From: Escherichia coli
GTDB lineage: Bacteria; Pseudomonadota; Gammaproteobacteria; Enterobacterales; Enterobacteriaceae
Strand: one strand, 5' to 3'
Length of the DNA stretch: 64,000 nt
Assembly (NCBI RefSeq): GCF_024700885.2
Contig: NZ_CP117016.1
The notes under the pieces are model-generated. The model saw nothing but the letters and a program-made list of their open reading frames with translations. It did no database searches and was not told where the DNA came from. Position numbers and translations under genes: made by a program. Position 1 is the first letter of the stretch. Each line of letters starts with the position of its first letter. Of this stretch, positions 1,343-38,876 are shown one piece after another.

Positions 1343-2389
1343 ATGAACAGAACTGACGAACTCCGTACTGCGCGTATTGAGAGCCTGGTAACGCCCGCCG
1401 AACTCGCGCTACGGTATCCCGTAACGCCTGGCGTCGCCACCCATGTCACCGACTCCCGCCGCAGAATTGAAAAAATACTGAATGGTGAAGATAAGCGACT
1501 GTTGGTCATTATTGGCCCCTGCTCGATCCACGATCTCACCGCTGCAATGGAGTACGCCACCCGTCTGCAGTCGCTGCGCAACCAGTACCAGTCACGGCTG
1601 GAAATCGTAATGCGCACCTATTTTGAAAAACCACGAACTGTTGTCGGCTGGAAAGGGCTAATCTCCGATCCGGATTTAAACGGCAGCTATCGGGTAAATC
1701 ACGGTCTGGAGCTGGCGCGCAAATTACTTTTACAGGTAAATGAGCTGGGCGTCCCCACCGCGACTGAGTTCCTCGATATGGTGACCGGTCAGTTTATTGC
1801 TGATTTAATCAGTTGGGGCGCGATTGGCGCACGTACTACCGAAAGTCAGATCCACCGTGAAATGGCTTCGGCACTCTCCTGTCCGGTAGGTTTTAAAAAT
1901 GGTACCGATGGCAACACGCGGATTGCTGTGGATGCTATCCGCGCAGCCCGCGCCAGCCATATGTTCCTCTCGCCAGACAAAAATGGTCAGATGACCATCT
2001 ATCAGACCAGCGGCAACCCGTATGGCCACATTATTATGCGTGGCGGCAAAAAACCGAATTATCATGCCGATGATATCGCCGCAGCCTGCGATACGCTGCA
2101 CGAGTTTGATTTACCTGAACATCTGGTGGTGGATTTCAGCCACGGTAACTGCCAGAAGCAGCACCGTCGCCAGTTAGAAGTTTGTGAGGATATTTGTCAG
2201 CAAATCCGCAATGGCTCTACGGCGATTGCTGGAATTATGGCGGAAAGTTTCCTGCGCGAAGGAACGCAAAAAATCGTCGGCGGTCAGCCGCTCACTTACG
2301 GTCAATCGATTACCGACCCGTGTCTGGGCTGGGAAGATACCGAACGCCTGGTCGAAAAACTCGCCTCTGCGGTTGATACCCGCTTCTGA
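1343..2389 (+). CDS. aroH: DAHP synthase, Trp-sensitive isozyme
   Basis: 348-aa ORF recognised as AroH; correct K-12 neighbourhood. Confidence 0.9.
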   Translation: MNRTDELRTARIESLVTPAELALRYPVTPGVATHVTDSRRRIEKILNGEDKRLLVIIGPCSIHDLTAAMEYATRLQSLRNQYQSRLEIVMRTYFEKPRTVVGWKGLISDPDLNGSYRVNHGLELARKLLLQVNELGVPTATEFLDMVTGQFIADLISWGAIGARTTESQIHREMASALSCPVGFKNGTDGNTRIAVDAIRAARASHMFLSPDKNGQMTIYQTSGNPYGHIIMRGGKKPNYHADDIAAACDTLHEFDLPEHLVVDFSHGNCQKQHRRQLEVCEDICQQIRNGSTAIAGIMAESFLREGTQKIVGGQPLTYGQSITDPCLGWEDTERLVEKLASAVDTRF

Positions 2390-2478
2390 ATGCGTGCCCA
2401 TTCCTGACGGAATGGGCATTTCTGCGCAACTTGTTGTCTTCTCAACAAATTACTGCTTGCTCTGGCCGCCATAATATT

Positions 2479-2497
2479 GATAATAAGAATCATTGTT
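2479..2497 (+). promoter_or_regulatory. Candidate Fur box upstream of ydiE
   Basis: GATAATAAGAATCATTGTT matches 15 of 19 positions of the Fur consensus GATAATGATAATCATTATC; 23 bp upstream of the ydiE ATG. Confidence 0.35.
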
Positions 2498-2519
2498 ATA
2501 TCAATTATTATTAATTTTT

Positions 2520-2711
2520 ATGCGTTATACGGATAGCAGAAAACTCACGCCTGAAACGGATGCCAATCACAAGACCGCTTCCCCGCAGCCCATCCGGCGA
2601 ATTACCAGCCAGACACTGTTAGGTCCGGATGGCAAACTGATTATCGATCATGACGGGCAAGAATATCTGCTCCGTAAAACTCAGGCTGGCAAGCTGCTGT
2701 TGACCAAGTAG
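2520..2711 (+). CDS. ydiE: HemP-like small protein
   Basis: 63-aa ORF starting MRYTDSRK; the track ORF starts 9 codons upstream at a less likely start. Confidence 0.8.
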
Positions 2712-2714
2712 CCT

Positions 2715-4190
<1,476 letters not shown>

Positions 4191-15703: not shown

Positions 15704-16663
15704 ATGAAAATTTGTATCGACGACGGCTCCACCAACATCAAGCTGGCATGGACTGAGAACGGCGAACGCCGCAACGCCATCAGCCCGAACAGCTTCAAGT
15801 CGGAATGGTCTGCGCCGTTCGGTGGCACGCAGCCCGCGAACTACATGCTTGATGGCGTGCGCTATGGTTTTGATCCGGTCAGCGATCGCTTTATCCAGAC
15901 GACCGACACACAATACCAGTACAGCGATGTGAATGTCATTGCCATTCATCACGCGCTGGTCAAATCAGGCATCACGCCACAGGAGGTGGATGTGGTTGTC
16001 ACCCTGCCACTGAGCGAGTATTTCGACACAAACGCACAGCCGGACATGGCCAACATCAACCGCAAAAAAGCAAACGTTATGCGCCCGGTGGAATACCAGA
16101 ACGGCGAAGCATTCACTATCCGTAATGTACGGGTTATGCCTGAATCCATTCCGGCTGGCTTTAAAGCACTGGCTGACATGAGTCCGTTTGAATCCCTGCT
16201 GATTGTGGATTTAGGTGGAACCACGCTGGATGTGGCAAAGGTTCAGGGACAACTGGCAGGTATCAGCCAGGTGTTTTGCGATCCACACGTAGGCGTTTCC
16301 CTGATGGCCGATGCAGTACTGTCGGTGATGGCCACTAACGGTATGCGTACCAGTCACCACATCGCCAATACCATTATCGAACATCGCCATGATGAAGCCT
16401 GGCTGCGCCAGCACATCCACAATGACGCGCATTACGCCAGCCTGATGGCGGTTATTCGTGAAAAGGAAGAAACACTGAAACAACGCGTGATCCGCGCGCT
16501 GGCGGGTTTTTCGGGTTACGGGCGGGTGATGGTTGTCGGTGGCGGGGCGGAGATTGTGGCACCCGCTATCCGCGAAGCCTGCGGAGTTAATGCGACTTTC
16601 ATCGCGGACGGGGTGCCACAGTTTGCTCTGGTTAATGGGCTGTACGCAATGGACAAGGAGTAA
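15704..16663 (+). CDS. ParM/StbA-like actin-family segregation ATPase
   Basis: 319 aa; IDDGSTNIKL, YSDVNVIAIHHAL, VMPESIPAG, LIVDLGGTTLD, VMVVGGGAE, LVNGLY match remembered R1 ParM blocks. Confidence 0.8.
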   Translation: MKICIDDGSTNIKLAWTENGERRNAISPNSFKSEWSAPFGGTQPANYMLDGVRYGFDPVSDRFIQTTDTQYQYSDVNVIAIHHALVKSGITPQEVDVVVTLPLSEYFDTNAQPDMANINRKKANVMRPVEYQNGEAFTIRNVRVMPESIPAGFKALADMSPFESLLIVDLGGTTLDVAKVQGQLAGISQVFCDPHVGVSLMADAVLSVMATNGMRTSHHIANTIIEHRHDEAWLRQHIHNDAHYASLMAVIREKEETLKQRVIRALAGFSGYGRVMVVGGGAEIVAPAIREACGVNATFIADGVPQFALVNGLYAMDKE

Positions 16664-16667
16664 ACCA

Positions 16668-16979
16668 ATGACGACACCAACCAGGCGGATAAGTTTCTAT
16701 CTGAAGCCTGCGGCCGTCAAGAACGAAAGCGAAGCATGCGCCTGGCTGGACAGCCTTACACCGGAAGCCCGCAAAAGCGGCCAACGCGTGGCTTTTCTGG
16801 CCGGGCTGGCACTTCTGAAAATGAATCCGGCAGAGGCTTACCGACTGGCTGCATGGGCTGACGATGAGGCGTTATCAGTGACACAAACCAGGACAGAACG
16901 CCCCCTGTCACAGCCAGTACCAACCGCACAGATAACCAGTCAGATGGCCGGAAATATCAGGGCGTTATTTCCTGAATAA
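16668..16979 (+). CDS. ParR/StbB-like centromere-binding adaptor
   Basis: RRISFYLKP...AFLAGLAL...IRALFP resembles R1 ParR; immediately downstream of parM-like gene. Confidence 0.65.
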   Translation: MTTPTRRISFYLKPAAVKNESEACAWLDSLTPEARKSGQRVAFLAGLALLKMNPAEAYRLAAWADDEALSVTQTRTERPLSQPVPTAQITSQMAGNIRALFPE

Positions 16980-28364: not shown

Positions 28365-29261
28365 ATGCCTGCCGTTGACCTTTCACAGTTACCGGAACCC
28401 GCCATCATCGCGGAGCCTGACTTTGAGGCAATTCTGGCTGACACAAAGGCCATGATGATTGCGTCCTATCCCGCCGAACAGCGTGAAGCCGTTTCCGCCG
28501 CGCTGGAGCTGGAATCGGAACCCCTTAACGTTATCGCTCAAACCATGTCGTTTCGTGAAATGCTGTTACGCCAGCGGGTCAATGAGGGTGCACGCGCCTG
28601 CATGCTAAGCCACAGCGCCGGGACAGACCTGGACAACCTCGCGGGCAATATGAACACAAAGCGCCTGGTTATCACTCCGGCAACGGATACCACCGACGCA
28701 GTGATGGAAAGTGACACCTCGCTGAGACTACGGGCGCAACGGGCATATGACGGTCTGAGTGTTGCTGGCCCGTCAGGTGCATACGAGTATTTTGCACGCA
28801 GCGCCAGCGGTCTGGTACGCGATGCGCGGGCCATCAGCCCGTCTCCGGCCAACGTGACGGTTTCCATCCTGTCCACTGAGGGCGACGGCACAGCAACGGA
28901 GGCGTTGCTTAATACCGTTCGCGCCGTTCTGAATGCAGAGCATACCCGCCCGGTGGCCGACCGCCTGACCGTACAGAGTGCCAGAATCGTGACATGGCGG
29001 CTGAATGCAAAACTGTACTTTTACCCCGGCCCGGAATCCGAACCTATTCTGGCCGCGGCGGAATCGTCATTCAGGAAGTGGCTGGCTGAACAGGGGCTTA
29101 TCGGTCAGGACGTGGCGTTGTCCGCCATTGCTGCCGCACTTCATGTACACGGCGTGCAACGCGTGGAGATAATCGAACCCACACAGAATATGGCCATCAG
29201 CGACATACAGGCGGCGCGCTGTGAGTCATTCACCATCAGCGAAGGTGGGCGTAATGAGTAA
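28365..29261 (+). CDS. J: Baseplate wedge protein (P2 gpJ-like)
   Basis: 298-aa ORF in the conserved position. Confidence 0.8.
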   Translation: MPAVDLSQLPEPAIIAEPDFEAILADTKAMMIASYPAEQREAVSAALELESEPLNVIAQTMSFREMLLRQRVNEGARACMLSHSAGTDLDNLAGNMNTKRLVITPATDTTDAVMESDTSLRLRAQRAYDGLSVAGPSGAYEYFARSASGLVRDARAISPSPANVTVSILSTEGDGTATEALLNTVRAVLNAEHTRPVADRLTVQSARIVTWRLNAKLYFYPGPESEPILAAAESSFRKWLAEQGLIGQDVALSAIAAALHVHGVQRVEIIEPTQNMAISDIQAARCESFTISEGGRNE

Positions 29262-29784
29262 TTCACTGTTACCGCCATCAGCCAGCAGTTTCATGCGTCG
29301 TGCCGAAGCTGTCGGAACGCGCATTACAGACATCCCGGTAGACCTCAACACGCTGTGGTCGCCGGACACCTGCCCGGTGCACCTGCTGCCTTATCTCGCC
29401 TGGGCATTTTCCGTTGACCGCTGGGATCGCAACTGGCCGGAAGAGACAAAGCGACAGGTGATTCGTGATGCATGGCTGATACACCGACACAAGGGAACCA
29501 TCAGCGCACTGCGCCGGGCCATTGAGCCGCTGGGATACCTCATTCGTGTGTCTGAGTGGTGGGAGTTCGGCGGAGAACCGGGAACATTTACCGTTGAAGT
29601 GGGCACGCTGGACAGTGGCGTGACGGAGGAAATGTATCTGGAAATGGAGCGGTTGATTGCTGATGCCCGCCCGGTCAGCCGCCACATGACAGGGCTGAAT
29701 ATCATTCAGGAGATCCCGGGAGATATTTTCGCGGCGGCAGCAACTTACGACGGTGAAGTCATTACCATTTATCCGGACGATTAA
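29254..29784 (+). CDS. I: Baseplate protein (P2 gpI-like)
   Basis: ATG overlapping J stop; a GTG at 29221 is the track start. Confidence 0.75.
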
Positions 29785-29786
29785 GC

Positions 29787-31976
29787 ATGAGTACCACAAC
29801 ACGTAAATTTAAAACCGTTATCACCGATACGGGTGCCAAAAAATTAGCTCAGGCAGCCGCGCCAGATGGTAAGCTTGTCCGCCTGACTCATATGGCCGTG
29901 GGCGACGGTGGCGGTACATTGCCCACACCAGACAGTAAGCAGACCCGTCTGGTGCATGAGGTGTGGCGACATACTGTTAATCGCGTCTTCCTGGACGCAA
30001 CACATCAGAACCGCATTATTGCGGAGCTGGTTATTCCTCCTGAAACGGGCGGATTCTGGATCCGGGAAATTGGTGTATTTGATGAGCACGGCGATTTGAT
30101 CGCGGTTGGCAATACAGCCGAAAGTTACAAGCCAACCGTTGCCGAAGGGTCAGGACGTGCACAAACATTTCGCACCATTCTGACCGTCTCCAGCACTGCC
30201 ACTGTGGCGCTTACCGTGGATAACACCATGGTTATGGCCACAGTGGATTACGTGAATGACAAACTGAAAGAACATGAACAGTCACGACGTCACCCGGACG
30301 CCTCGCTGACCGCAAAAGGCTTTGTTCAACTCAGTAGCGCCACCAACAGCACGTCTGAAGCACTGGCCGCAACGCCGAAAGCGGTCAAGGCAGCCTATGA
30401 CCTTGCTAACGGGAAATATACCGCACAGGACGCCACTATAGCGCGAAAAGGCCTTGTTCAGCTCAGTAGCGCCACCAACAGCGATTCTGAAACGCTGGCG
30501 GCAACACCAAAGGCGGTAAAGGCAGCATATGACCTTGCTAACGGGAAATATACCGCACAGGACGCTACCACAGCGCGAAAAGGTCTTGTCCAGCTCAGTA
30601 GTGCGACCAACAGCACATCCGAAATGCTGGCGGCAACACCAAAGGCGGTAAAGGCAGCATATGACCTTGCTAACGGGAAATATACCGCACAGGACGCTAC
30701 GACAGCACAAAAAGGAATTGTCCAGCTCAGTAGTGCAACCAACAGCGCATCTGAAACGCTTGCTGCGACATCGAAAGCAGTGAAAGCAGCTAATGACAAT
30801 GCGAATGGTCGGGTACCTTCTGCCCGTAAGGTGAATGGTAAGGCGCTTTCAGCGGATATAACACTGACACCGAAAGATATTGGTACGCTTAACTCAACAA
30901 CTATGTCATTCAGCGGTGGTGCTGGTTGGTTCAAATTAGCAACGGTAACCATGCCGCAGGCGAGTTCTGTTGTTTCAATTACGTTGATTGGTGGGGCTGG
31001 ATATAACGTCGGTTCACCTCAACAGGCAGGTATATCTGAACTTGTTTTGCGTGCAGGTAATGGTAATCCGAAGGGGATTACTGGTGCTTTATGGCAGCGC
31101 ACATCGGCAGGGTTTACAAATTTTGCCTGGGTCAATACATCTGGTGATACTTACGATATTTACGTTGCAATCGGAAATTATGCGACTGGTGTAAATATTC
31201 AATGGGATTATACCAGTAATGCCAGCGTAACGATTCATACGTCACCTGCATATTCTGCTAATAAGCCGGAAGGGTTAACGGACGGTACAGTTTATTCACT
31301 CTATACGCCATCAGAGCAGTTTTATCCGCCTGGCGCACCAATCCCGTGGCCATCGGATACCGTTCCGTCTGGTTATGCCCTGATGCAGGGGCAGACTTTT
31401 GACAAATCTGCCTACCCGAAACTTGCAGTCGCTTATCCGTCAGGCGTGATCCCTGATATGCGTGGCTGGACGATTAAGGGCAAGCCCGCCAGTGGTCGTG
31501 CCGTATTGTCTCAGGAACAGGACGGCATTAAATCGCACACCCACAGCGCCAGCGCATCCAGTACGGATTTGGGTACGAAAACCACATCTTCGTTTGATTA
31601 CGGCACTAAATCAACGAATAACACGGGTGCACATACCCACAATGTATCTGGTACTGCAAATAGTGCTGGCGCACATACTCATACCGTTCCATTAAGGAGA
31701 CCAAACAGTGGAGGTATGAATTTCGACTGGCTTGATGGTGCATCAAGTGGCACGGTGGTGGGGAATGGAACTGTGCCTTCTTCTGGCGCACATACCCACT
31801 CAGTATCAGGTACCGCTACAAGTGCTGGGGCACATGCACACACTGTTGGTATTGGCGCTCATACGCACTCTGTTGCGATTGGTTCACATGGACACACCAT
31901 CACCGTTAACGCTGCTGGTAACGCGGAAAACACCGTTAAAAACATCGCATTTAATTATATTGTGAGGCTTGCATAA
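29787..31976 (+). CDS. H: Tail fibre protein (P2 gpH-like) with internal tandem repeats and His-rich C-terminal domain
   Basis: 729 aa; four 44-aa repeats ([15 protein letters not shown]...[15 protein letters not shown]) and C-terminal GAHTH(S/T)V repeats. Confidence 0.85.
30315..30800 (+). repeat. Four tandem 132-bp repeats within tail fibre gene H
   Basis: Units begin at 30315, 30447, 30579 and 30711; the fourth diverges in its second half. Confidence 0.8.
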
Positions 31977-32593
31977 TGGCATTCAGAATGAGTGAACAAT
32001 CACGTACTGTAAAAATTTATAACCTGCTGGCCGGAACTAATGAGTTTATTGGTGAAGGTGACGCATATATTCCACCTCATACAGGGCTGCCAGCTAATTC
32101 TACAGATATCGCCCCACCGGAAATTCCTGCTGGCTTTGTGGCAGTTTTTAACAGTGAAAATGAATCGTGGAATATTGTTGAAGACCATCGTGGTAAAACG
32201 GTCTATGACGTGGCATCGGGGGACGCGTTGTTTATTTCTGAGCCCGGACCGCTACCAGAGAATGTCACCTGGTTGTCGCCAGCAGGGGAGTATCAGAAGT
32301 GGGACGGCGTATCCTGGGTGAAGGATGAGGAAGCAGAAAAACTGTTTCGGATACGGGAAGCGGAAGAGAAAAAGGCAAGGTTGATCCAGGAAGCAACAGA
32401 TAACATCGCAATTCTGCAGGATGCAGTTAATCTTGAAATAGCAACAAACGAGGAAAATTCACAACTGGATTCCTGGAGAAAATACAGAGTATTAGTGAGT
32501 AGAATTGACACCAGTACAGCTCCGGATATCGTATGGCCAGAGCTGATGAATCAGGGTTATGTGCGGGAGGACGAGCAGATAACTTCAGACTGA
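31976..32593 (+). CDS. G: Tail fibre assembly chaperone (P2 gpG-like)
   Basis: 205-aa ORF starting on the H stop (TAATG). Confidence 0.8.
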
Positions 32594-33120
32594 AATTTAG
32601 TGATGAATGTTGAATCATCAGGAATATCATGCAATACCAATGCATGAGCACCTATTGTGACATTGTTTCCTATACGCACTTTGCCACCAAGAATGGTGGC
32701 ATTACAACCAATGGTCACATTATGTCCTATAACAATATCCATATCATTAAAATCACCACGCAGCCCAATAGTTACCCCTGGTTTTATTGAACAATTTTCA
32801 CCGATTGTTACTTTGTGACCGATAACAACACTGTTGAGATAAGAAATATCAAAGCCTTTCCCTATATTTACAGTTAAAGGGACTGTTACATTATATTTAT
32901 CAAGAATGAAACGTTCTATTTTCCCCGCAATCTTCCGACAGTATCCGCCTTTATCAAAAAGGTACTTGGCTATGCGCCACCAAAATAAATAACGAACTCT
33001 TCTATGTTTTATTGCGCGAACAATTGCCTTTCGCCAGGAGAAAGGACGCTCGCTACCGATTACTTCATAGTGAATACAATCTTTAAGTTCATTAATATTC
33101 ATATCTCTATTATTCAGCAT
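32557..33120 (-). CDS. Low-GC cargo: hexapeptide-repeat (left-handed beta-helix) acetyltransferase
   Basis: 187 aa with repeated [LIV]GxxxxIG hexapeptides; about 30% GC; between G and the tail module. Confidence 0.7.
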
Positions 33121-33290: not shown

Positions 33291-33785
33291 TCAGAACAGC
33301 CCTTTAACTGAACTGGCCGCGCTGTTAAGGGATGATGTCACTTTATCTTTGAAGCCGGACAGCATATCGCTGAACGATGAGGATTGCAGGCGCTCCCGCA
33401 AATCCTCATCACAGCGTTCAAGGGTCAGTGAAAATTCTATCTTTTTCGCCTTACCGTAGCGATCAAACTCGGAACGGGTCGTATTCGTTTCGGTCAGGAC
33501 ATACATGCCGTAAATCTGCCCGACGCCATCAATCAGAGGCCAGGGGCGTCCTGTATACGCCTGCGTGGTCAGCAGCGACAGCGACACTTCGCCACCTGTA
33601 ATTTCAGGATAAAGCACACCAGAAAGAACGATGCGATCATCACCTGCACCGATATACTGCCAGCTTGCTGAACGGTTAACGCGTTCATTTTTCACATGCC
33701 GCCAGCTTTTGTTTTGCTGTAACTGCTGATGCGGCAGCGTGCGCAGCTCAAAAACAAACATGCCGTAGATCATCATCATGGCCAT
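33291..33785 (-). CDS. U: Tail protein (P2 gpU-like)
   Basis: 164-aa ORF downstream of tape measure on the same strand. Confidence 0.7.
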   Translation of the reverse strand: MAMMMIYGMFVFELRTLPHQQLQQNKSWRHVKNERVNRSASWQYIGAGDDRIVLSGVLYPEITGGEVSLSLLTTQAYTGRPWPLIDGVGQIYGMYVLTETNTTRSEFDRYGKAKKIEFSLTLERCDEDLRERLQSSSFSDMLSGFKDKVTSSLNSAASSVKGLF

Positions 33786-33791
33786 GACTCC

Positions 33792-36608
33792 TCAATCTTT
33801 ATCGTAAAAACTGCCACGCCCGGCACGGGCGCGCCGTTCCATTTCTGCCCTGACCATTTCACCGACCAGTTTCGCCAGTTCGCGGGGATTCTGCGTAACA
33901 ACGTTATGCAGATGAACATGAATTTCACCACCAAATCCGGAGGCAACAGGCTCCCGGTTACGGAAAGTTACAGGAACTGATGCCACTGGAGATCGTATGG
34001 CCTCCGCCACCGGGCGGGAGCTGGCCGCAACAACAGGGACCAGCGCCGGAGGCAGCGGAGCCGGGACCACGGGTGTGATATTAATTGCGGGGGCAGGCTT
34101 ACTGACCTGCGCAATCTTCCGCTCCTGCCACTCCCCACGAACAGCAAGTGCGCGGGGCAGGTTCTTAAAGACAATATCGCCGGGGCCAATGCGTTTTTTC
34201 GTCTCATCAACCAGCTTACCTGTGTTATCAGCAATTTTGCTGAGTCTGCGTAGCGTCCCGGTATTGCTGTCTGTGAGCGGTTTGTTGTCTTTGGGTTTAT
34301 CACCTCCGGTGCCATTGCCATTTTCCACAGGCTTCGGCGGATTGATTTTCGCCAGGTCACCCTGAAGCAAGGCAACCTTGTCCTGAAGAATGGCCGCACG
34401 CTGTGCGTCTTCGATTTTCTTGCGCGCCCTTTCCGCTTCATCCGGAAGGACGCCAAGTTTTTCAAGTATCCACGCCAGCGTATCCAGTAGCATTTTTGCA
34501 GGTGTCAGAACAAGCTGTAACGCACCGCCAAGAACGTTACCGAATATCTCGCCAGCACTGGTACATTTATCCAGCGTTTCCTTGCTGGACTCCATCGGTG
34601 ACAGCAGCGATTTAAACCAGTTAAACACCTGGCTGATCCCGCTTCCGATTGCGTCAAAAACAGGACCAAACCGTTCAAAGGTTTCGCGCAACGGGGTCAG
34701 CCTTTCCATAATCCCGCTGAACACCCCGGCAAAAAATGCCCTGATGGGATCCCAGTATTTCCAGATAAGAACGGCAGCTCCGGCAAGCGCAGCCACGATA
34801 AGACCAACCGGACTGAACAGCGCCCCGATAGCGCCTCCCAGTAAAGAAACGGAACCCGTCACCATTCCCCACAGCGCAGGCAACACCCTGACGACATTCA
34901 TTGACCGGGTAAGAATGTCGAAACCAAGACGCAGGGTGGCCAGCTTCCCGTAAAGCACCCCAATAACCAGCGACAACGAGCCAATCGTTGCAGTCATTGC
35001 CAGCAACGCACCGCCTGCTATCAGTAGTTGGCGCGTCAGTACCGGATGGGCCTGCGCCAGCGAGGTGATTTTTTCAAGCACCCGCGTGAGCCACTGCGTG
35101 ACAGAACGCAGCGGACCGTCAACCAGATCACTGATGCGAATACGAAGACCTTCCCATGCGCTGTCGAGATTTTTCAGGTCCCCATCAAGATTATCGGCCA
35201 TTACTTTTGCGACGCGATCGGCCTCTCCCCTTGCCCCCTGCAATTCTCTGGTCAGTTTTTGCAGCTCTCCTGAACCAGCCGCCGCAACAAGCGTCTGCAA
35301 ACCAACGAACGCCTCTTCTCCGGCGATGTCCTTGAAGAAGGAAACCTGGTCCACCTGTCCGTATTTTTGTGTCGCCTTATAGAGATCAAGCAGCACATCC
35401 TCCATCGGGCGCATTTTGCCTCTGGCGTCAGCAACTGACACCCCCAGCTCTTTCAGTGCATCAGCCGCAGCTTTTGGCGGTGATGCAAGGCGGGACAGAC
35501 TTGCGCGCATGGCCGTACCAGCATCGCTTCCGCGAAGACCATTATTGGCAAGCATCCCGGCCATGGCCGCCGCTTCTTCAAGACTGATACCAAGTTTTGC
35601 GGCAACCGGACCGGTATACTTCATGGTTTCGCCCAGCGCGCGTAAATCAGTATTGGTCCGGGTGAATGTTGCTGTCAGTGTATCGCCAACCCGGTCCATT
35701 TGATCGGCTGTCAGGTTGAACTGTGTGAGGATATTGGAGCCTATATCAGCCGTCTCGCCGAGTTCGACGCCACCTGCCAGCGCCATATTAAGAACACCGG
35801 GCAATGCGGCCTGAATGGCCTGCGGAGTAAAACCAGCCATTGCCAGAAAGCTCTGCCCACTGGCGGCATCACTCGCAGTAAACTGTGTTTCAGAGCCAAG
35901 TTTTAACGCCTGCTCACGCAGCGCCTTAAACTGCGGGCTGTTTTTGTCGATTCGCGTCAGTGCCTGAACGCGGGACATCTCTTTGCCGAACCCGATCGCA
36001 GGCTGCAAAAAACGCCCGGCAGCATAGCCGCCCGCCGCTGCCGCACCAATTGCCAGCGCACCACCTGTTTTCAGTTTTCCCGCTGTTTCCTGCGCGCGCG
36101 AATACCGCTCACGCGCCCGCGTTACACGCGCAAGCGCCTGCCGTTCGCGTTCAAGCTGGTTGTTGTACTGTTCGGTGCGTCTGATGGCCTGCTGGATGGT
36201 GTTATCGCTGCCTGTCAGGGAAATGCCGTGGCGTTTCAGCTCTCCGCCAAGTTCCCGCATTTTCTGAATTTCCCGTGTGCGCGATTCATTCAGGCGTTCA
36301 AGCCGGGTGCTTAACTGCTGCATCAGCTTTTGTTGTTTTTCGCTGAGCACTGTACCCGTGCGTTGTAACTGATTAAGGGCGTTAAGCTGGCGTCGTGCTT
36401 TCACGATGCCCGCATCCGCTTTACTGACAGCGTCACGGGCGCGCTCAAATGAACGCGCCTGACGCTCGAGATTTTTGATCGCCCCCTGCGTTCGCTGGAT
36501 GGAGTCACCAAACTGCCCCATCAGGCGGCGGGCGTTTTCGGCAGGCCGGGTCAGCCTGTCAACGGCGCTGAAAGCGACCCGGATATCAAGAGTCTTCATT
36601 GTCTGCAT
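33792..36608 (-). CDS. T: Tail tape measure protein (P2 gpT-like)
   Basis: About 940 aa, long coiled-coil N-terminal half, Gly/Ala-rich membrane-like segments; start could be 36608, 36599 or GTG 36635. Confidence 0.8.
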   Translation of the reverse strand: MQTMKTLDIRVAFSAVDRLTRPAENARRLMGQFGDSIQRTQGAIKNLERQARSFERARDAVSKADAGIVKARRQLNALNQLQRTGTVLSEKQQKLMQQLSTRLERLNESRTREIQKMRELGGELKRHGISLTGSDNTIQQAIRRTEQYNNQLERERQALARVTRARERYSRAQETAGKLKTGGALAIGAAAAGGYAAGRFLQPAIGFGKEMSRVQALTRIDKNSPQFKALREQALKLGSETQFTASDAASGQSFLAMAGFTPQAIQAALPGVLNMALAGGVELGETADIGSNILTQFNLTADQMDRVGDTLTATFTRTNTDLRALGETMKYTGPVAAKLGISLEEAAAMAGMLANNGLRGSDAGTAMRASLSRLASPPKAAADALKELGVSVADARGKMRPMEDVLLDLYKATQKYGQVDQVSFFKDIAGEEAFVGLQTLVAAAGSGELQKLTRELQGARGEADRVAKVMADNLDGDLKNLDSAWEGLRIRISDLVDGPLRSVTQWLTRVLEKITSLAQAHPVLTRQLLIAGGALLAMTATIGSLSLVIGVLYGKLATLRLGFDILTRSMNVVRVLPALWGMVTGSVSLLGGAIGALFSPVGLIVAALAGAAVLIWKYWDPIRAFFAGVFSGIMERLTPLRETFERFGPVFDAIGSGISQVFNWFKSLLSPMESSKETLDKCTSAGEIFGNVLGGALQLVLTPAKMLLDTLAWILEKLGVLPDEAERARKKIEDAQRAAILQDKVALLQGDLAKINPPKPVENGNGTGGDKPKDNKPLTDSNTGTLRRLSKIADNTGKLVDETKKRIGPGDIVFKNLPRALAVRGEWQERKIAQVSKPAPAINITPVVPAPLPPALVPVVAASSRPVAEAIRSPVASVPVTFRNREPVASGFGGEIHVHLHNVVTQNPRELAKLVGEMVRAEMERRARAGRGSFYDKD

Positions 36609-37124
36609 TCCCGCTGCGAAGTGCCGCCCGCTCACGCCAGCTAACCACTTCGCCGGGCGTCATCATGAAGATTTCGGCGGGCGACCAGTTAAAAATGGCG
36701 GCGATATCTGCCACCAGATCTTCGATGTGCTCAAAGCACACCAGCGTGATTACGCTGCCGTCTCCTGCACGCTCTTCGCGCCAGAGTCTGGCTCGCTCAT
36801 AAAATTTACAGCCACAGCGCACAACTGAATAAAATCGCGTGACGACATTTTTTTAATCATCACTTCATCCAGTCGTGGCGAGGTCACGCGAGGCAACAGC
36901 GTGAACATGGTATCCGCTTTCAGATTCAGCACATCAGACAGCGACAGACCACGCAGGGATCCAGCCTGTTCAATAGCCCCGGTGATCTCCACATACGTGA
37001 TTTTTTCGCCACCACGCTCAATTGGTCGGGTCAGTTTTACGCCACGTTCGACAGCCATATCCTCACCTGCCGTCACATCATCCACCACGGTGTTATTCCG
37101 GGTTTCAGTATCGATGTCTTTCAT
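36586..37124 (-). CDS. Tail assembly chaperone E+E' fusion by programmed -1 ribosomal frameshift
   Basis: Slippery heptamer A_AAT_TTT on the minus strand (36807-36801) in E frame; -1 frame continues ...KFYERARLW... to a stop at 36586. Confidence 0.6.
36750..37124 (-). CDS. E: Tail assembly chaperone (P2 gpE-like)
   Basis: 124-aa ORF between tail tube and tape measure. Confidence 0.7.
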   Translation of the reverse strand: MKDIDTETRNNTVVDDVTAGEDMAVERGVKLTRPIERGGEKITYVEITGAIEQAGSLRGLSLSDVLNLKADTMFTLLPRVTSPRLDEVMIKKMSSRDFIQLCAVAVNFMSEPDSGAKSVQETAA

Positions 37125-37179
37125 CAGTTTTCTCCTTTTCAGTCAGAGGCGACGCACTGCGTCGCCTGCATATTACTTA

Positions 37180-37692
37180 TCAGCCAAGCCCGAGCGCGGA
37201 ACGGATACGGTCAGGCAAAATGTCCTTGCCGTCCTTCCGGTAGATGTGGTTCAACAGGTCGATTTCCCACAGCGGGCGATCGTTAACGCTCAGCTTGTAG
37301 TAGGTGTTTTTGACAGCGTAAGTGTGTGATGTGGCTTCGCCCTGTTTGGCTTCCCCCATATCAATTTCCGTCACACGTCCGCGCATCTCGATTTCATACA
37401 GATCGCTTTCTGCATCGGTGTAGTATTCACCCGCAAAACGCAGCAGCGTGCCGTCAATCGTGCCGCCATATTTAAGGAACAGCGCACGAACAGCTCCCCC
37501 CATAACAAAACTCGCATCAAGCGCGGAGTCGTCCAGACCGAGATCAATACTTACCGCCCCCATCATGCCACCACCACGATAGCTGTCGGTTTTGCGCGTC
37601 AGTTTGGGCGGCGTGACGGATGTCACTTTACCCACTTCGTTTTCACCATCCACAAACAACGTAAAAAAGCGAAGATGTTTTGGTACAGCCAT
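37180..37692 (-). CDS. FII: Tail tube protein (P2 gpFII-like)
   Basis: 170-aa ORF directly downstream of sheath gene. Confidence 0.8.
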   Translation of the reverse strand: MAVPKHLRFFTLFVDGENEVGKVTSVTPPKLTRKTDSYRGGGMMGAVSIDLGLDDSALDASFVMGGAVRALFLKYGGTIDGTLLRFAGEYYTDAESDLYEIEMRGRVTEIDMGEAKQGEATSHTYAVKNTYYKLSVNDRPLWEIDLLNHIYRKDGKDILPDRIRSALGLG

Positions 37693-38876
37693 CAGGCACC
37701 TCCCAGCACCGCAAATGCGGGACCAAAGAATTCATCAGTAAACGTCTGGTAAAGCTCCATGTCTTCCAGTGGCGGAACGGGCGTATATTTGTAGCGAATA
37801 CGCACACGTCCCTGACGTAAATTCGTGGTGCCGTTATCCACCACGTCATACCAGCACTCCGCGCCAATCAGTTTCCCGGCAGTAACCAGCGAATCCAGTT
37901 TTGCCCTGATGGCACTGATAACATCCTTCACGTTCGCAGGCGTCAGTGGACTGTCGATAGTTTCAAACTGCGCTTCCGCAATTGAATCAGCCAGCACCTG
38001 TGCGGTTCGGGTATACACCTCAAAGATGTAGGCGTTCGTTTCCGGTGTGCGGTTGCCCCAGAAGCGGAACCCATTGCGACGAATAATGGTCGTGATTTCT
38101 TTGTTGTTGAGGCTGTTGGCATCGCTGTCTTCGGCCTGCAACGACCAGAACACATGCCTCGACATCCCCAGCACATTTTTAACCGGAACGTTGGACAGTG
38201 ATTTGTGCCACCCCTGCTCATGGTCAATGTACGCACGAAGGCCGCACGCATAGGCAGGCGCGGGGAACGTTTCGTTTTTGCCACTTTTCGGGTTGTAGGC
38301 GATGAAGTCCGGCCATAAGAGCATCACCTCACGTTCGTTGAATTTCTGGCGGTAGGTAATCGCCTCAGCCATCGTGTTACAGCCGTGACATGAGGCATAC
38401 ACAAACGCGCGCAGTTTACCTGCAATCACGCACAGGGATTTTGTTACAGCCTCCGTGTCCAGCTCCGGCGCGGCCAGAATACGCGGACGGTATCCGATGC
38501 TTTCATCCTGCTCTGCAACAAGCAGCGCATACATCCCCGTATAGCTGCCGTCATCCTCAGAACCACCGATAACCAGTTGATCCTGCGTCTTTCCGTCTTC
38601 TTCTTTGTGTTCAGCCACGCGAACGACAATCACCTTTGTGCTCACCTGGTCTGCGATGGCCTTAAGCGCACGATAAAGCGTCCCCGTTGTCCCGCATTTT
38701 CCCAGCACGTCATTGACGCGGGTCAGCAGTGTGGGCTTGTTCAGCGGGAACAGCTTCGCGTCCGCATCATCCGCCGTTGCCACGATACCGATAACGCTGG
38801 AATCAACATCGTTAATCGCTGTTACCAGGTCGGTATTTTCCGTAACACGGGCACCATGAAAACGAGTTTCACTCAT
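37692..38876 (-). CDS. FI: Contractile tail sheath protein (P2 gpFI-like)
   Basis: 394 aa; LIRR(N/D)GFRFWGNRT and YTPVPPLE blocks match remembered P2 FI. Confidence 0.85.
   Translation of the reverse strand: MSETRFHGARVTENTDLVTAINDVDSSVIGIVATADDADAKLFPLNKPTLLTRVNDVLGKCGTTGTLYRALKAIADQVSTKVIVVRVAEHKEEDGKTQDQLVIGGSEDDGSYTGMYALLVAEQDESIGYRPRILAAPELDTEAVTKSLCVIAGKLRAFVYASCHGCNTMAEAITYRQKFNEREVMLLWPDFIAYNPKSGKNETFPAPAYACGLRAYIDHEQGWHKSLSNVPVKNVLGMSRHVFWSLQAEDSDANSLNNKEITTIIRRNGFRFWGNRTPETNAYIFEVYTRTAQVLADSIAEAQFETIDSPLTPANVKDVISAIRAKLDSLVTAGKLIGAECWYDVVDNGTTNLRQGRVRIRYKYTPVPPLEDMELYQTFTDEFFGPAFAVLGGA

Follow-up and report, generated by a model that had tools for sequence, protein, structure and literature searches.

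We asked what kind of tail fibre is encoded by an open reading frame that combines a tandem repeat array with a histidine-rich C-terminus, and which of these two parts would be the one that changes with the host. The gene lies in a stretch of Escherichia coli DNA of 64,000 nucleotides, here called the window, and had been taken, from the letters of the DNA, for a tail fibre gene H. That it is the H of a P2-like prophage was borne out by a P2 gpH-type N-terminus in the encoded protein (Pfam PF12571, 180 bits against a cutoff of 23), as well as by the gene order J-I-H-tfa. By Pfam, Baseplate_J (28365–29261) and Tail_P2_I (29221–29784) are followed by H and then by Caudo_TAP, placing H in a P2-like late operon behind the baseplate genes J and I and before a fibre assembly gene, and the RefSeq prophage matching the window carries P2-family capsid, portal, terminase and ogr genes. 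Gene H is 100% identical over 2190 bp to its counterparts in E. coli E-1246, MLI114 and 98208, and it is already known as an ordinary, catalogued P2-like prophage fibre gene, all components of which belong to described families. The features discussed below are as follows.

29787–31976, plus strand: gene H, 729-aa tail fibre of the P2-like prophage (open reading frame with ATG start; RefSeq WP_127904466.1, 'phage tail protein')
29802–30245, plus strand: N-terminal baseplate-attachment domain, aa 6–153 (Pfam PF12571 Phage_tail_fib, E=2.8e-53)
30303–30830, plus strand: shaft array, four 44-aa Phage_fiber_2 units, aa 173–348 (Tandem Repeats Finder, Pfam, unit HMM)
30840–31310, plus strand: middle domain, aa ~352–508, predicted all-beta at low confidence
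31317–31532, plus strand: collar, first part, aa 511–582, corresponding to T4 gp37 D10 residues 811–881 (PF07484 Collar, E=2.5e-11; 85% identical to T4 gp37; limits from PMC6957217)
31533–31682, plus strand: needle stem, descending strand, aa 583–632, HxH 1–3 (72% identical to T4 gp37 882–931)
31683–31772, plus strand: tip subdomain, aa 633–662, presumed receptor-binding cassette (11% identity to T4 gp37 932–959)
31773–31922, plus strand: needle stem, ascending strand, aa 663–712, HxH 4–7 (64% identical to T4 gp37 960–1009)
31923–31973, plus strand: collar, second part, aa 713–729, corresponding to T4 gp37 1010–1026 (16/17 residues, 94%, identical to T4)
31976–32593, plus strand: Tfa, tail fibre assembly chaperone, 205 aa (PF02413 Caudo_TAP, E=1.6e-39)

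The Pfam architecture of H comprised PF12571, which was common to 73 of 150 diverse representatives, four PF03406 units, PF07484 and PF03335. The middle domain had no Pfam match, a phmmer comparison of the N-terminal and middle domains with PDB sequences gave no match, and NCBIfam held no model matching H or Tfa. An AF2 monomer of aa 165–510 reached an overall pLDDT of 43, with the middle domain modelled as beta strands at pLDDT 50–70, and Foldseek against the PDB returned weak matches only (6TGF with E=3e-4 and TM 0.29; the Pa193 and E217 fibres at ~1e-2). At the DNA level the middle domain was 92% identical to the S fibre of the P1-like phage JL22, and its GC content was 43–48% versus 52–55% upstream.

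The repeat array had originally been described as four near-identical 132-bp units beginning at 30315, 30447, 30579 and 30711 on the plus strand. Their number, period and positions stood up to analysis, with a KG motif at aa 177, 221, 265 and 309 marking those nucleotides and a custom unit HMM delimiting the units as aa 173–216, 217–260, 261–304 and 305–348, but the near-identity applied to units 1–3 only. These agreed pairwise at 110–120 of 132 nucleotides (83–91%) and 40–41 of 44 residues, whereas the diverged unit 4 shared 78–83 of 132 nucleotides (59–63%) and 27–28 of 44 residues with them, mainly in its first 27 residues. Exact in-register runs amounted to 75 nt between units 2 and 3 and to 38 nt between units 1 and 2 as well as 1 and 3. 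Tandem Repeats Finder reported the array at 30314–30760 (period 132, 3.4 copies, 89% matches, score 670), a repeat search gave 231-nt copies at 132-nt spacing, and Pfam assigned four stretches to the ~42-residue repeat PF03406 Phage_fiber_2 (E=1.9e-78, 258 bits against a cutoff of 22). A degenerate pattern for the AATPKAVK core occurred four times in the 64-kb window, every time in the H array, with 0 occurrences expected.

What structure the repeats adopt can be proposed with some reserve. As the AF2 monomer failed on them, giving helices at a pLDDT below 45, their reading as a helical, coiled-coil-like shaft depends on a low-confidence model together with the analogy to the way the proximal domain of lambda Stf has been modelled. 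In Ur-lambda Stf a proximal coiled-coil domain spans residues 102–393 and is followed by a hinge (PMC12617516). The unit HMM placed a single Phage_fiber_2 unit at aa 358–394 of this protein, closing the coiled-coil domain just before the hinge, which supports a helical shaft for the units of H. Engineered lambda–P2 fibres have P2 H, starting with residue 251, attached to lambda Stf R393 (PMC11338833), and by the same unit HMM placement this fusion point falls where the Phage_fiber_2 unit ends. Lambda Stf thus resembles H in having Phage_fiber_2 at the proximal rod end, though as one unit versus four, and it differs in its N-terminal anchor, which is unrelated to that of H, being part of a siphophage collar. 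Such a unit is also found in the Mu tail fibre S (PDB 5YVQ, 8JU3), aa 99–155 of which align with aa 291–347 of H (E=9e-9), but Mu S has another distal receptor-binding domain and chaperone type, and no HxH needle match. P2 gpH shares the N-terminal domain and Phage_fiber_2 (77% nucleotide identity over gene nt 19–1016), has four units according to the P2 record that was used, and occupies the same late-operon position, whereas its homology with H ends at the repeat end, its last 260 residues contain 0 HxH and no needle, and P2 gpG is only 19–38% identical to the Tfa found here.

For the C-terminus, at least six HxH motifs reminiscent of T4 fibre tips had been claimed. We counted seven, at aa 584, 616, 630, 669, 683, 692 and 701 and thereby within the last 146 residues, six of them matching the pattern (G/S)(A/S)HxH, and the likeness to T4 went further than suggested. 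The C-terminal 231 residues (aa 499–729) share homology with the T4 gp37 tip solved by crystallography (D10–D11, PDB 2XGF; phmmer E=1.2e-86, 66% identity over 229 aa, no frameshift), for which domain limits and seven irons have been described (PMC6957217). All seven HxH align with the iron-binding HxH of T4, comprising 14/14 needle histidines: H584/586, H616/618 and H630/632 of HxH 1–3 pair with T4 H883, H915 and H929, and H669/671, H683/685, H692/694 and H701/703 of HxH 4–7 with T4 H966, H980, H989 and H998. A PF03335 match, a 14-residue His-box repeat, was found at aa 611–624 (27.6 bits, cutoff 20). Across 14 needles carrying 12 different tips, the HxH histidines were invariant or at least 90% conserved; in HxH 5–7 both His were invariant, as was the first one of HxH 4, the second being at least 90% conserved; exactly seven HxH, the modal number, were present in 42 of 65 representative needles. 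By analogy with T4 gp37, H would probably form an intertwined trimeric, six-stranded needle in which each of the three chains contributes seven HxH to the coordination of seven metal (iron) ions lined up on the axis. The poor AF2 score of aa 499–729 (pLDDT 44, pTM 0.14) is to be expected when an intertwined metal-bound trimer is modelled as a monomer. Next to these likenesses to T4, which extend to the same C-terminal strand and a homologous chaperone gene directly downstream, there are clear differences: the tip subdomain of H exceeds that of T4 by two residues at an identity of 11%, its needle sits on a 729-aa P2-type fibre rather than on the 1026-aa gp37 with gp34–36, and its chaperone, a Tfa of the lambda type, has just 28% identity with gp38 (E=3e-19). 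The lambda-type needle of HK629 differs in another way, having eight HxH, an additional SFDYGTK repeat and another tip.

The tfa start overlaps the stop codon of H, and the encoded protein is 81% identical to the lambda-type Tfa of HK629 and 99% to that of phage 613R2, its C-terminal 55 residues co-varying with tip type. A Tfa/gp38-like gene directly 3' of the fibre gene is a hallmark of the T4/lambda RBP family, to which Ur-lambda Stf (orf401 + orf314) with Tfa belongs (Magaziner & Salmond 2022, PMC9659904), and H shows every feature listed for that family, namely homology of the last ~215 residues, sequence divergence with its focus in the specificity region, and a gp38/Tfa-like gene as the next one downstream.

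The divergence is concentrated in the tip, with 11% identity to T4 at aa 633–662 versus 64–94% elsewhere, and among the 14 needles the tip subdomain cannot be aligned at all. E. coli H alleles carry at least 10 alternative tip cassettes on the same scaffold and repeat shaft. Comparisons with E. coli strain 165, LSU61, JL22, HK629 and T4 placed the breakpoints at two His boxes, homology stopping at gene nt 1824–1856 (His box 2) and resuming at 2034–2059 (His box 5); with P88 and P2, homology extends no further than the repeats, being lost within the array or where it closes. A model of recombination at His boxes was reportedly put forward by Tetart et al. in 1998. In the T4 tip the receptor-binding region has been mapped by mutation (PMC6957217), and by homology with that mapping the receptor-contacting part of H is presumably aa 633–662 and not the repeats. 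The T4-mapped residues are not conserved in the H tip, and since this subdomain is only 11% identical, the receptor itself is not transferable from T4; OmpC or LPS core are candidates by analogy with T4 and Ur-lambda.

Repeat number had been predicted to vary between H alleles, and allele comparison indeed revealed 2 to 5 units. The alleles of 641, 685, 729 and 773 aa (2, 3, 4 and 5 units) are 100% identical outside the array, and those with a variant copy number show unequal-crossover junctions: in the 5-unit allele the additional unit is a chimera of units 2 and 3 (124 and 128 of 132 nt), and the sequenced 3-unit allele, one of two different ones found, has its junction at the start of unit 3/unit 4. 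Length series also occurred with other tips (715/759/803, 659/747 and 719/763 aa), and relatives sharing the P2-H N-terminal domain have 0 to 6 units, with up to 12 among all representatives. Four units nevertheless prevailed strongly, in 53/55 complete genomes and about 592/615 contigs (~96%; hand count), whereas 2-, 3- and 5-unit alleles were rare (about 4% of contigs, 2/55 complete genomes). A literature search on tandem-repeat copy number in fibres found no pertinent paper.

Considering these results together, we favour, at a probability of about 90%, a reading of H as a mosaic and presumably trimeric fibre of five modules, with shaft units, an iron needle, Tfa-aided folding and tip swapping. 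The P2-type N-terminus (module 1, aa 1–165) would fix the fibre to the baseplate beside gpI and gpJ, the four repeat units (module 2, aa 173–348) would form a proximal rod with a length set by their number, and a beta-rich knob (module 3, aa ~352–508) would follow. The collar (module 4, aa 511–582 and 713–729) would have the long antiparallel needle (module 5, aa 583–712) inserted into it, with residues 633–662 forming a receptor-binding tip at the needle turn, and folding of collar and needle would need the Tfa encoded just downstream. DNA identity among the units may permit unequal homologous recombination that adds or removes whole 132-bp units, and the conserved repeat sequence may double as a junction at which differing distal modules were joined. 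Host specificity would shift mainly through exchange of the segment between His boxes, for which the repeated GGNGCNCAYACNCAY codons would supply homology.

Several other explanations were weighed against this reading. The array also gives rise to opposite-strand open reading frames at 30282–30710 (142 aa) and 30458–30952 (164 aa), which had been called spurious from the outset. Their lengths of 142 and 164 codons would be the argument for true overlapping genes, yet they sit entirely within the repeat array and are themselves repetitive, neither gave a Pfam match above threshold, RefSeq annotates no gene there, and most substitutions between units are synonymous in the plus-strand frame of H (9:4, 16:4, 7:3), so that they are best read as spurious; we rejected them as genes, the chance of their being real appearing negligible. 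To read the histidine-rich C-terminus as a remnant that has decayed or lost its function, or else as a metal-binding tail of generic low complexity, in place of a folded gp37-type needle, is likewise very improbable, if slightly less so. Such a remnant could account for the monomer prediction without a confident fold, and two database alleles (690 and 676 aa) are indeed tipless owing to deletions between His boxes, but it is at odds with the full-domain match to 2XGF without frameshift, the aligned histidines, the collar strand 94% identical to T4, the intact cognate Tfa downstream, and the conservation of the allele at 98.8% or higher in 17 finished genomes from various hosts and countries.

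Two further alternatives concern the repeat number. That alleles with other than four units are assembly artefacts, arising by collapse or mis-joining of the 132-bp repeat in short-read drafts while the true number is always four, would fit the 75-nt exact run between units 2 and 3, the location of most variant alleles on draft contigs of 160–700 kb, and the exact length of 2190 bp, hence four units, of this tip allele in 18 complete E. coli genomes. These independently finished genomes at the same time show that the four units are not an assembly artefact, contrary to the collapse originally suspected for this locus. The notion that every variant number is artefactual is nonetheless improbable, with three units in the finished genomes STEC1585 and STEC2018-607, a 3-unit allele on a 3.42-Mb contig, hundreds of draft contigs in which the 4-unit allele is assembled correctly, and the 5-unit allele (on three contigs) expanded by a clean in-frame chimera of a kind that collapse does not yield. 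Whether repeat number itself sets host range, with the 44-aa units tuning fibre length to the depth of O-antigen or capsule, is a different matter, and the 2- to 5-unit alleles on an otherwise identical protein, the length series with other tips and the wide range of unit numbers among relatives would all agree with it. The strongly modal four units, and the location of the hypervariability in the tip cassette, counterpart of the receptor region mapped in T4, make this unlikely as well. We consider the tip cassette flanked by the His boxes the more plausible switch of host range, with repeat number looking secondary in this respect.

Gene H, when read as such a mosaic fibre, opens no new question, and serves as a clean worked example in which both classic routes of fibre evolution occur within one prophage gene: a repeat shaft gains or loses whole units, and cassettes are exchanged at conserved His-box motifs, with breakpoints directly readable from public genomes. 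A modest practical use may lie in the repeat end and the His boxes as natural splice points for re-targeting P2 or lambda particles, the natural tip cassettes, at least 10 on one scaffold, providing a ready library.

We finally considered the region downstream of tfa. An invertible segment with alternative tips, as in Mu, P1 and P88, the last of which has inverted fibre and assembly genes, was rejected, the window having an acetyltransferase gene followed by gpU instead. This acetyltransferase is a 187-aa hexapeptide enzyme; on the same prophage backbone, a second tip type is accompanied by a 190-aa acetyltransferase, only 37% identical, and a third by a family-9 glycosyltransferase. It is conceivable, though doubtful, that tip cassette, Tfa C-terminus and the sugar-modifying gene after tfa are inherited as a matched 'bind-and-mask' unit, a suggestion based on these three tip types and simple adjacency. 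If so, the enzyme could modify the glycan recognised by the tip (LPS core or O-antigen), whereby lysogens would be shielded from superinfection and released virions kept from sticking to debris. Literature searches on P2-like acetyltransferase morons and on Escherichia phage vB_EcoM-613R2 found no pertinent paper. Phage 613R2, which is otherwise different, does have the same acetyltransferase alongside the same tip, and its Stf-Tfa-acetyltransferase segment is 96% identical in nucleotides from the collar start to the acetyltransferase (gene nt 1539–3334), with one residue differing in aa 633–662, although its 948-aa fibre has another N-terminus and shaft with only two Phage_fiber_2 units.

The tail fibre gene H is a single open reading frame in a P2-like prophage, preceded by Baseplate_J- and Tail_P2_I-domain genes and followed by a Caudo_TAP gene (Pfam):

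29787–31976, plus strand, tail fibre gene H, single ORF of 729 codons
31976–32593, assembly chaperone Tfa, 205 aa, Caudo_TAP protein (Pfam)
32557–33120, minus strand, hexapeptide-repeat acetyltransferase, 187 aa, PF00132

The H DNA was a 100% match to genes annotated 'phage tail protein' in finished E. coli genomes such as E-1246, where the gene is carried by a 33-kb P2-like prophage adjoining ihfA/pheT and having integrase, P2-family capsid, portal, terminase, baseplate V/W/J/I, sheath, tube, tape measure and ogr genes. The E-1246 copy differed from the prophage in the window at two positions, and the exact H protein was already present in RefSeq; every part of H is a member of a described family.

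The last 231 residues of H matched the crystallised tip of T4 gp37 (2XGF, E = 1.2e-86), with 66% identity between H and gp37 in tblastn. With domain limits taken from Islam et al. 2019 (PMC6957217), the two proteins aligned as follows.

Correspondence of T4 gp37 with H, by domain (gp37 residues; H residues; identity).
Collar D10, first part; 811–881; 511–582; 85%
Stem, descending; 882–931; 583–632; 72%
Tip; 932–959; 633–662; 11%
Stem, ascending; 960–1009; 663–712; 64%
Collar D10, second part; 1010–1026; 713–729; 94%

The original prediction had counted at least six GAHTH-type motifs; the histidine-rich repetition was confirmed, with the number corrected to seven HxH motifs, pairing one-to-one with T4 H883, H915, H929, H966, H980, H989 and H998. 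Along the gp37 needle seven iron atoms are coordinated by histidines from three chains (PMC6957217). In an alignment of 14 needles with 12 different tips, both histidines of HxH 1, 5, 6 and 7 and the first of HxH 4 were invariant, conservation was at least 90% for the HxH 3 histidines and the second of HxH 4, and HxH 2 was found in 11, with the interval from HxH 3 to HxH 4 unalignable throughout. Exactly seven HxH were present in 42 of 65 representative needles, and the Pfam His-box repeat PF03335 matched H residues 611–624. Since the motifs are conserved across needles and Pfam models the His box, conservation in homologues, the absence of which had been named as evidence against the proposal, instead favours it, and a T4-like, putatively metal-binding C-terminus is strongly supported by the gp37 homology (2XGF, seven aligned HxH).

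Module boundaries were drawn from pairwise blastn, with positions given in nucleotides of the H gene. Phage 613R2 was 96% identical from nt 1539 (collar start) through the acetyltransferase gene. For E. coli strain 165, O157 LSU61, P1-like JL22, lambda-like HK629 and T4, homology was lost at nt 1824–1856 (His box 2) and regained at nt 2034–2059 (His box 5), and for P88 and P2 it ended at nt 869 and about 1020, positions inside the repeat array or at its end. On one scaffold, the 120 closest proteins carried ten or more different tip cassettes, with needles having 5, 6 or 7 HxH. Two homologues, P0086 (690 aa) and P0095 (676 aa), had no tip; the 39 and 53 aa that they lack correspond exactly to the distances, 117 nt and 159 nt, between His-box direct repeats (window 31649/31766 and 31626/31785), and represent either real recombinational deletion or assembly error (contigs of 41 and 4.8 kb). 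His boxes were reportedly described by Tetart et al. in 1998 as recombination points swapping adhesin specificity, which the breakpoints, cassettes and deletions fit. That idea places the host-range determinant in residues ~619–677 and not in the shaft repeats. The suggestion that repeat number drives host range was not supported by the observations made here. The middle domain of H (residues ~352–508), shared with JL22 from nt 1092, gave no match in Pfam or PDB sequence searches and was 92% identical in nucleotides to part of the JL22 S fibre; it is a separately mobile module. Its GC content is lower, at 43–48% (window 30840–31310, plus strand).

Tfa was 99% identical to that of phage 613R2, 81% to the lambda-type Tfa of HK629 and 28% to T4 gp38 (E = 3e-19). 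Its first 100 residues were ~90% identical throughout lambda-type Tfas, whereas its last 55 were 100% identical only where the tip was the same and otherwise 38–47%. The H needle and Tfa belong to the needle–chaperone family found in >200 phages (Magaziner & Salmond 2022, PMC9659904). Nothing lies between H and tfa in the window, whereas a gene for a 300-aa 'macro domain-containing protein' is inserted there in the sister prophage of E. coli O157:H7 LSU61 (L002 4657–5559).

The acetyltransferase gene is convergent with tfa, overlapping it by 37 nt, and has a GC content of 37% versus 55–61% for the baseplate genes; its best NCBIfam matches, none reaching the cutoff, were of EpsC, CysE and WcaB types. 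Corresponding genes follow tfa in the related loci compared:

L005 4241–4804
L011 4666–5142
L002 6190–6762
L012 5270–5842
L003 5306–6484
L014 5438–6616

Among the three tip types compared, the sugar-modifying gene in this slot changed with the tip: the acetyltransferase above with the tip of the window, one just 37% identical to it with a second tip, a family-9 glycosyltransferase with a third, and in 613R2 the same acetyltransferase together with the same tip. JL22, the fibre of which has its middle domain and collar in common with H, encodes a serine acetyltransferase at the same position. The acetyltransferase may be a receptor-masking moron.

The shaft array was located by Tandem Repeats Finder at 30314–30760 (period 132, 3.4 copies, 89% matches), by Pfam as four Phage_fiber_2 stretches, and by a purpose-built unit HMM at residues 173–216, 217–260, 261–304 and 305–348, the predicted unit starts (30315, 30447, 30579 and 30711) being exact. 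The description of four near-identical units holds for units 1–3 (110–120/132 nt and 40–41/44 aa mutual identity), but unit 4 has diverged (just 78–83/132 nt and 27–28/44 aa). Differences among units 1–3 were mostly synonymous (synonymous to other, 9:4, 16:4 and 7:3), which places the peptide under purifying selection in the H frame. Two long antisense ORFs over the repeats gave no family match in a Pfam search and are best read, as had been supposed, as by-products of the repeats.

Eighteen finished E. coli genomes each had one ungapped 2190-bp match to this allele (at least 98.8% identity in 17, 95.7% in one), none matching a three- or five-unit allele without a gap. A query with only the two array flanks found 55 finished genomes, 53 with a spacing of 528 bp (four units) and two, STEC1585 and STEC2018-607, with 396 bp (three units). 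Outside the array, the 641-, 685-, 729- and 773-aa alleles of the protein collection were 100% identical, and contigs summed by hand numbered ~592 with four units, 15 with three, five with two and three with five. Units 2 and 3 share an exact in-register run of 75 nt, and units 1/2 and 1/3 runs of 38 nt, lengths that suffice for RecA-dependent exchange. The extra unit of the five-unit allele is a unit 2/unit 3 chimera (124 and 128 of 132 nt), in a sequenced three-unit allele, from a 3.42-Mb contig, the junction coincides with the unit-3/unit-4 start, and of two distinct three-unit alleles one lacks unit 2 and the other unit 3; together these argue for real unequal crossover and not assembly error, although some variants found just in drafts could still be artefacts. 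Unit-number polymorphism is thus real but rare. Among 150 diverse representatives, some of them fragments, unit number ranged from 0 to 12; the 73 that have the N-terminal domain of P2 H had 0 (4), 1 (21), 2 (29), 3 (12), 4 (4), 5 (1) or 6 (2) units. The distant relatives P0142 (846 aa) and P0139 (778 aa) have 11–12 Phage_fiber_2-like units at alternating 44- and 56-residue spacing, shafts far longer than the four units of H.

In Ur-lambda Stf the proximal coiled-coil domain spans 102–393, directly followed by a hinge (PMC12617516), and the unit HMM placed its sole Phage_fiber_2 unit at residues 358–394, closing that domain just ahead of the hinge. Engineered lambda–P2 fibres pass from lambda Stf to P2 H (residue 251 onwards) at Stf R393 (PMC11338833), and R393 is, by unit-HMM placement, the end of the lambda unit. 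An AF2 monomer model gave helical H units, with pLDDT below 45. From these three observations we infer that the four units would form the proximal rod of the fibre, with unit number setting rod length, and that they may also serve as a conserved junction at which modules are exchanged.

At window ~15704–16979 and ~42075–42215, by correspondence with the RefSeq annotation of the near-identical E-1246 prophage, there are ParM-type plasmid segregation genes, which follow the replication endonuclease gene, and, at the ihfA-proximal prophage end, a gene for a Hok/Gef toxin. The gpU, tape measure, gpE, tube and sheath genes (~33291–38876, minus strand) are convergent with the H–tfa operon. In P2 itself the gpU-to-sheath block and H share one direction; the minus-strand arrangement was also seen in the related loci L012–L015 and seems to be characteristic of this prophage lineage.
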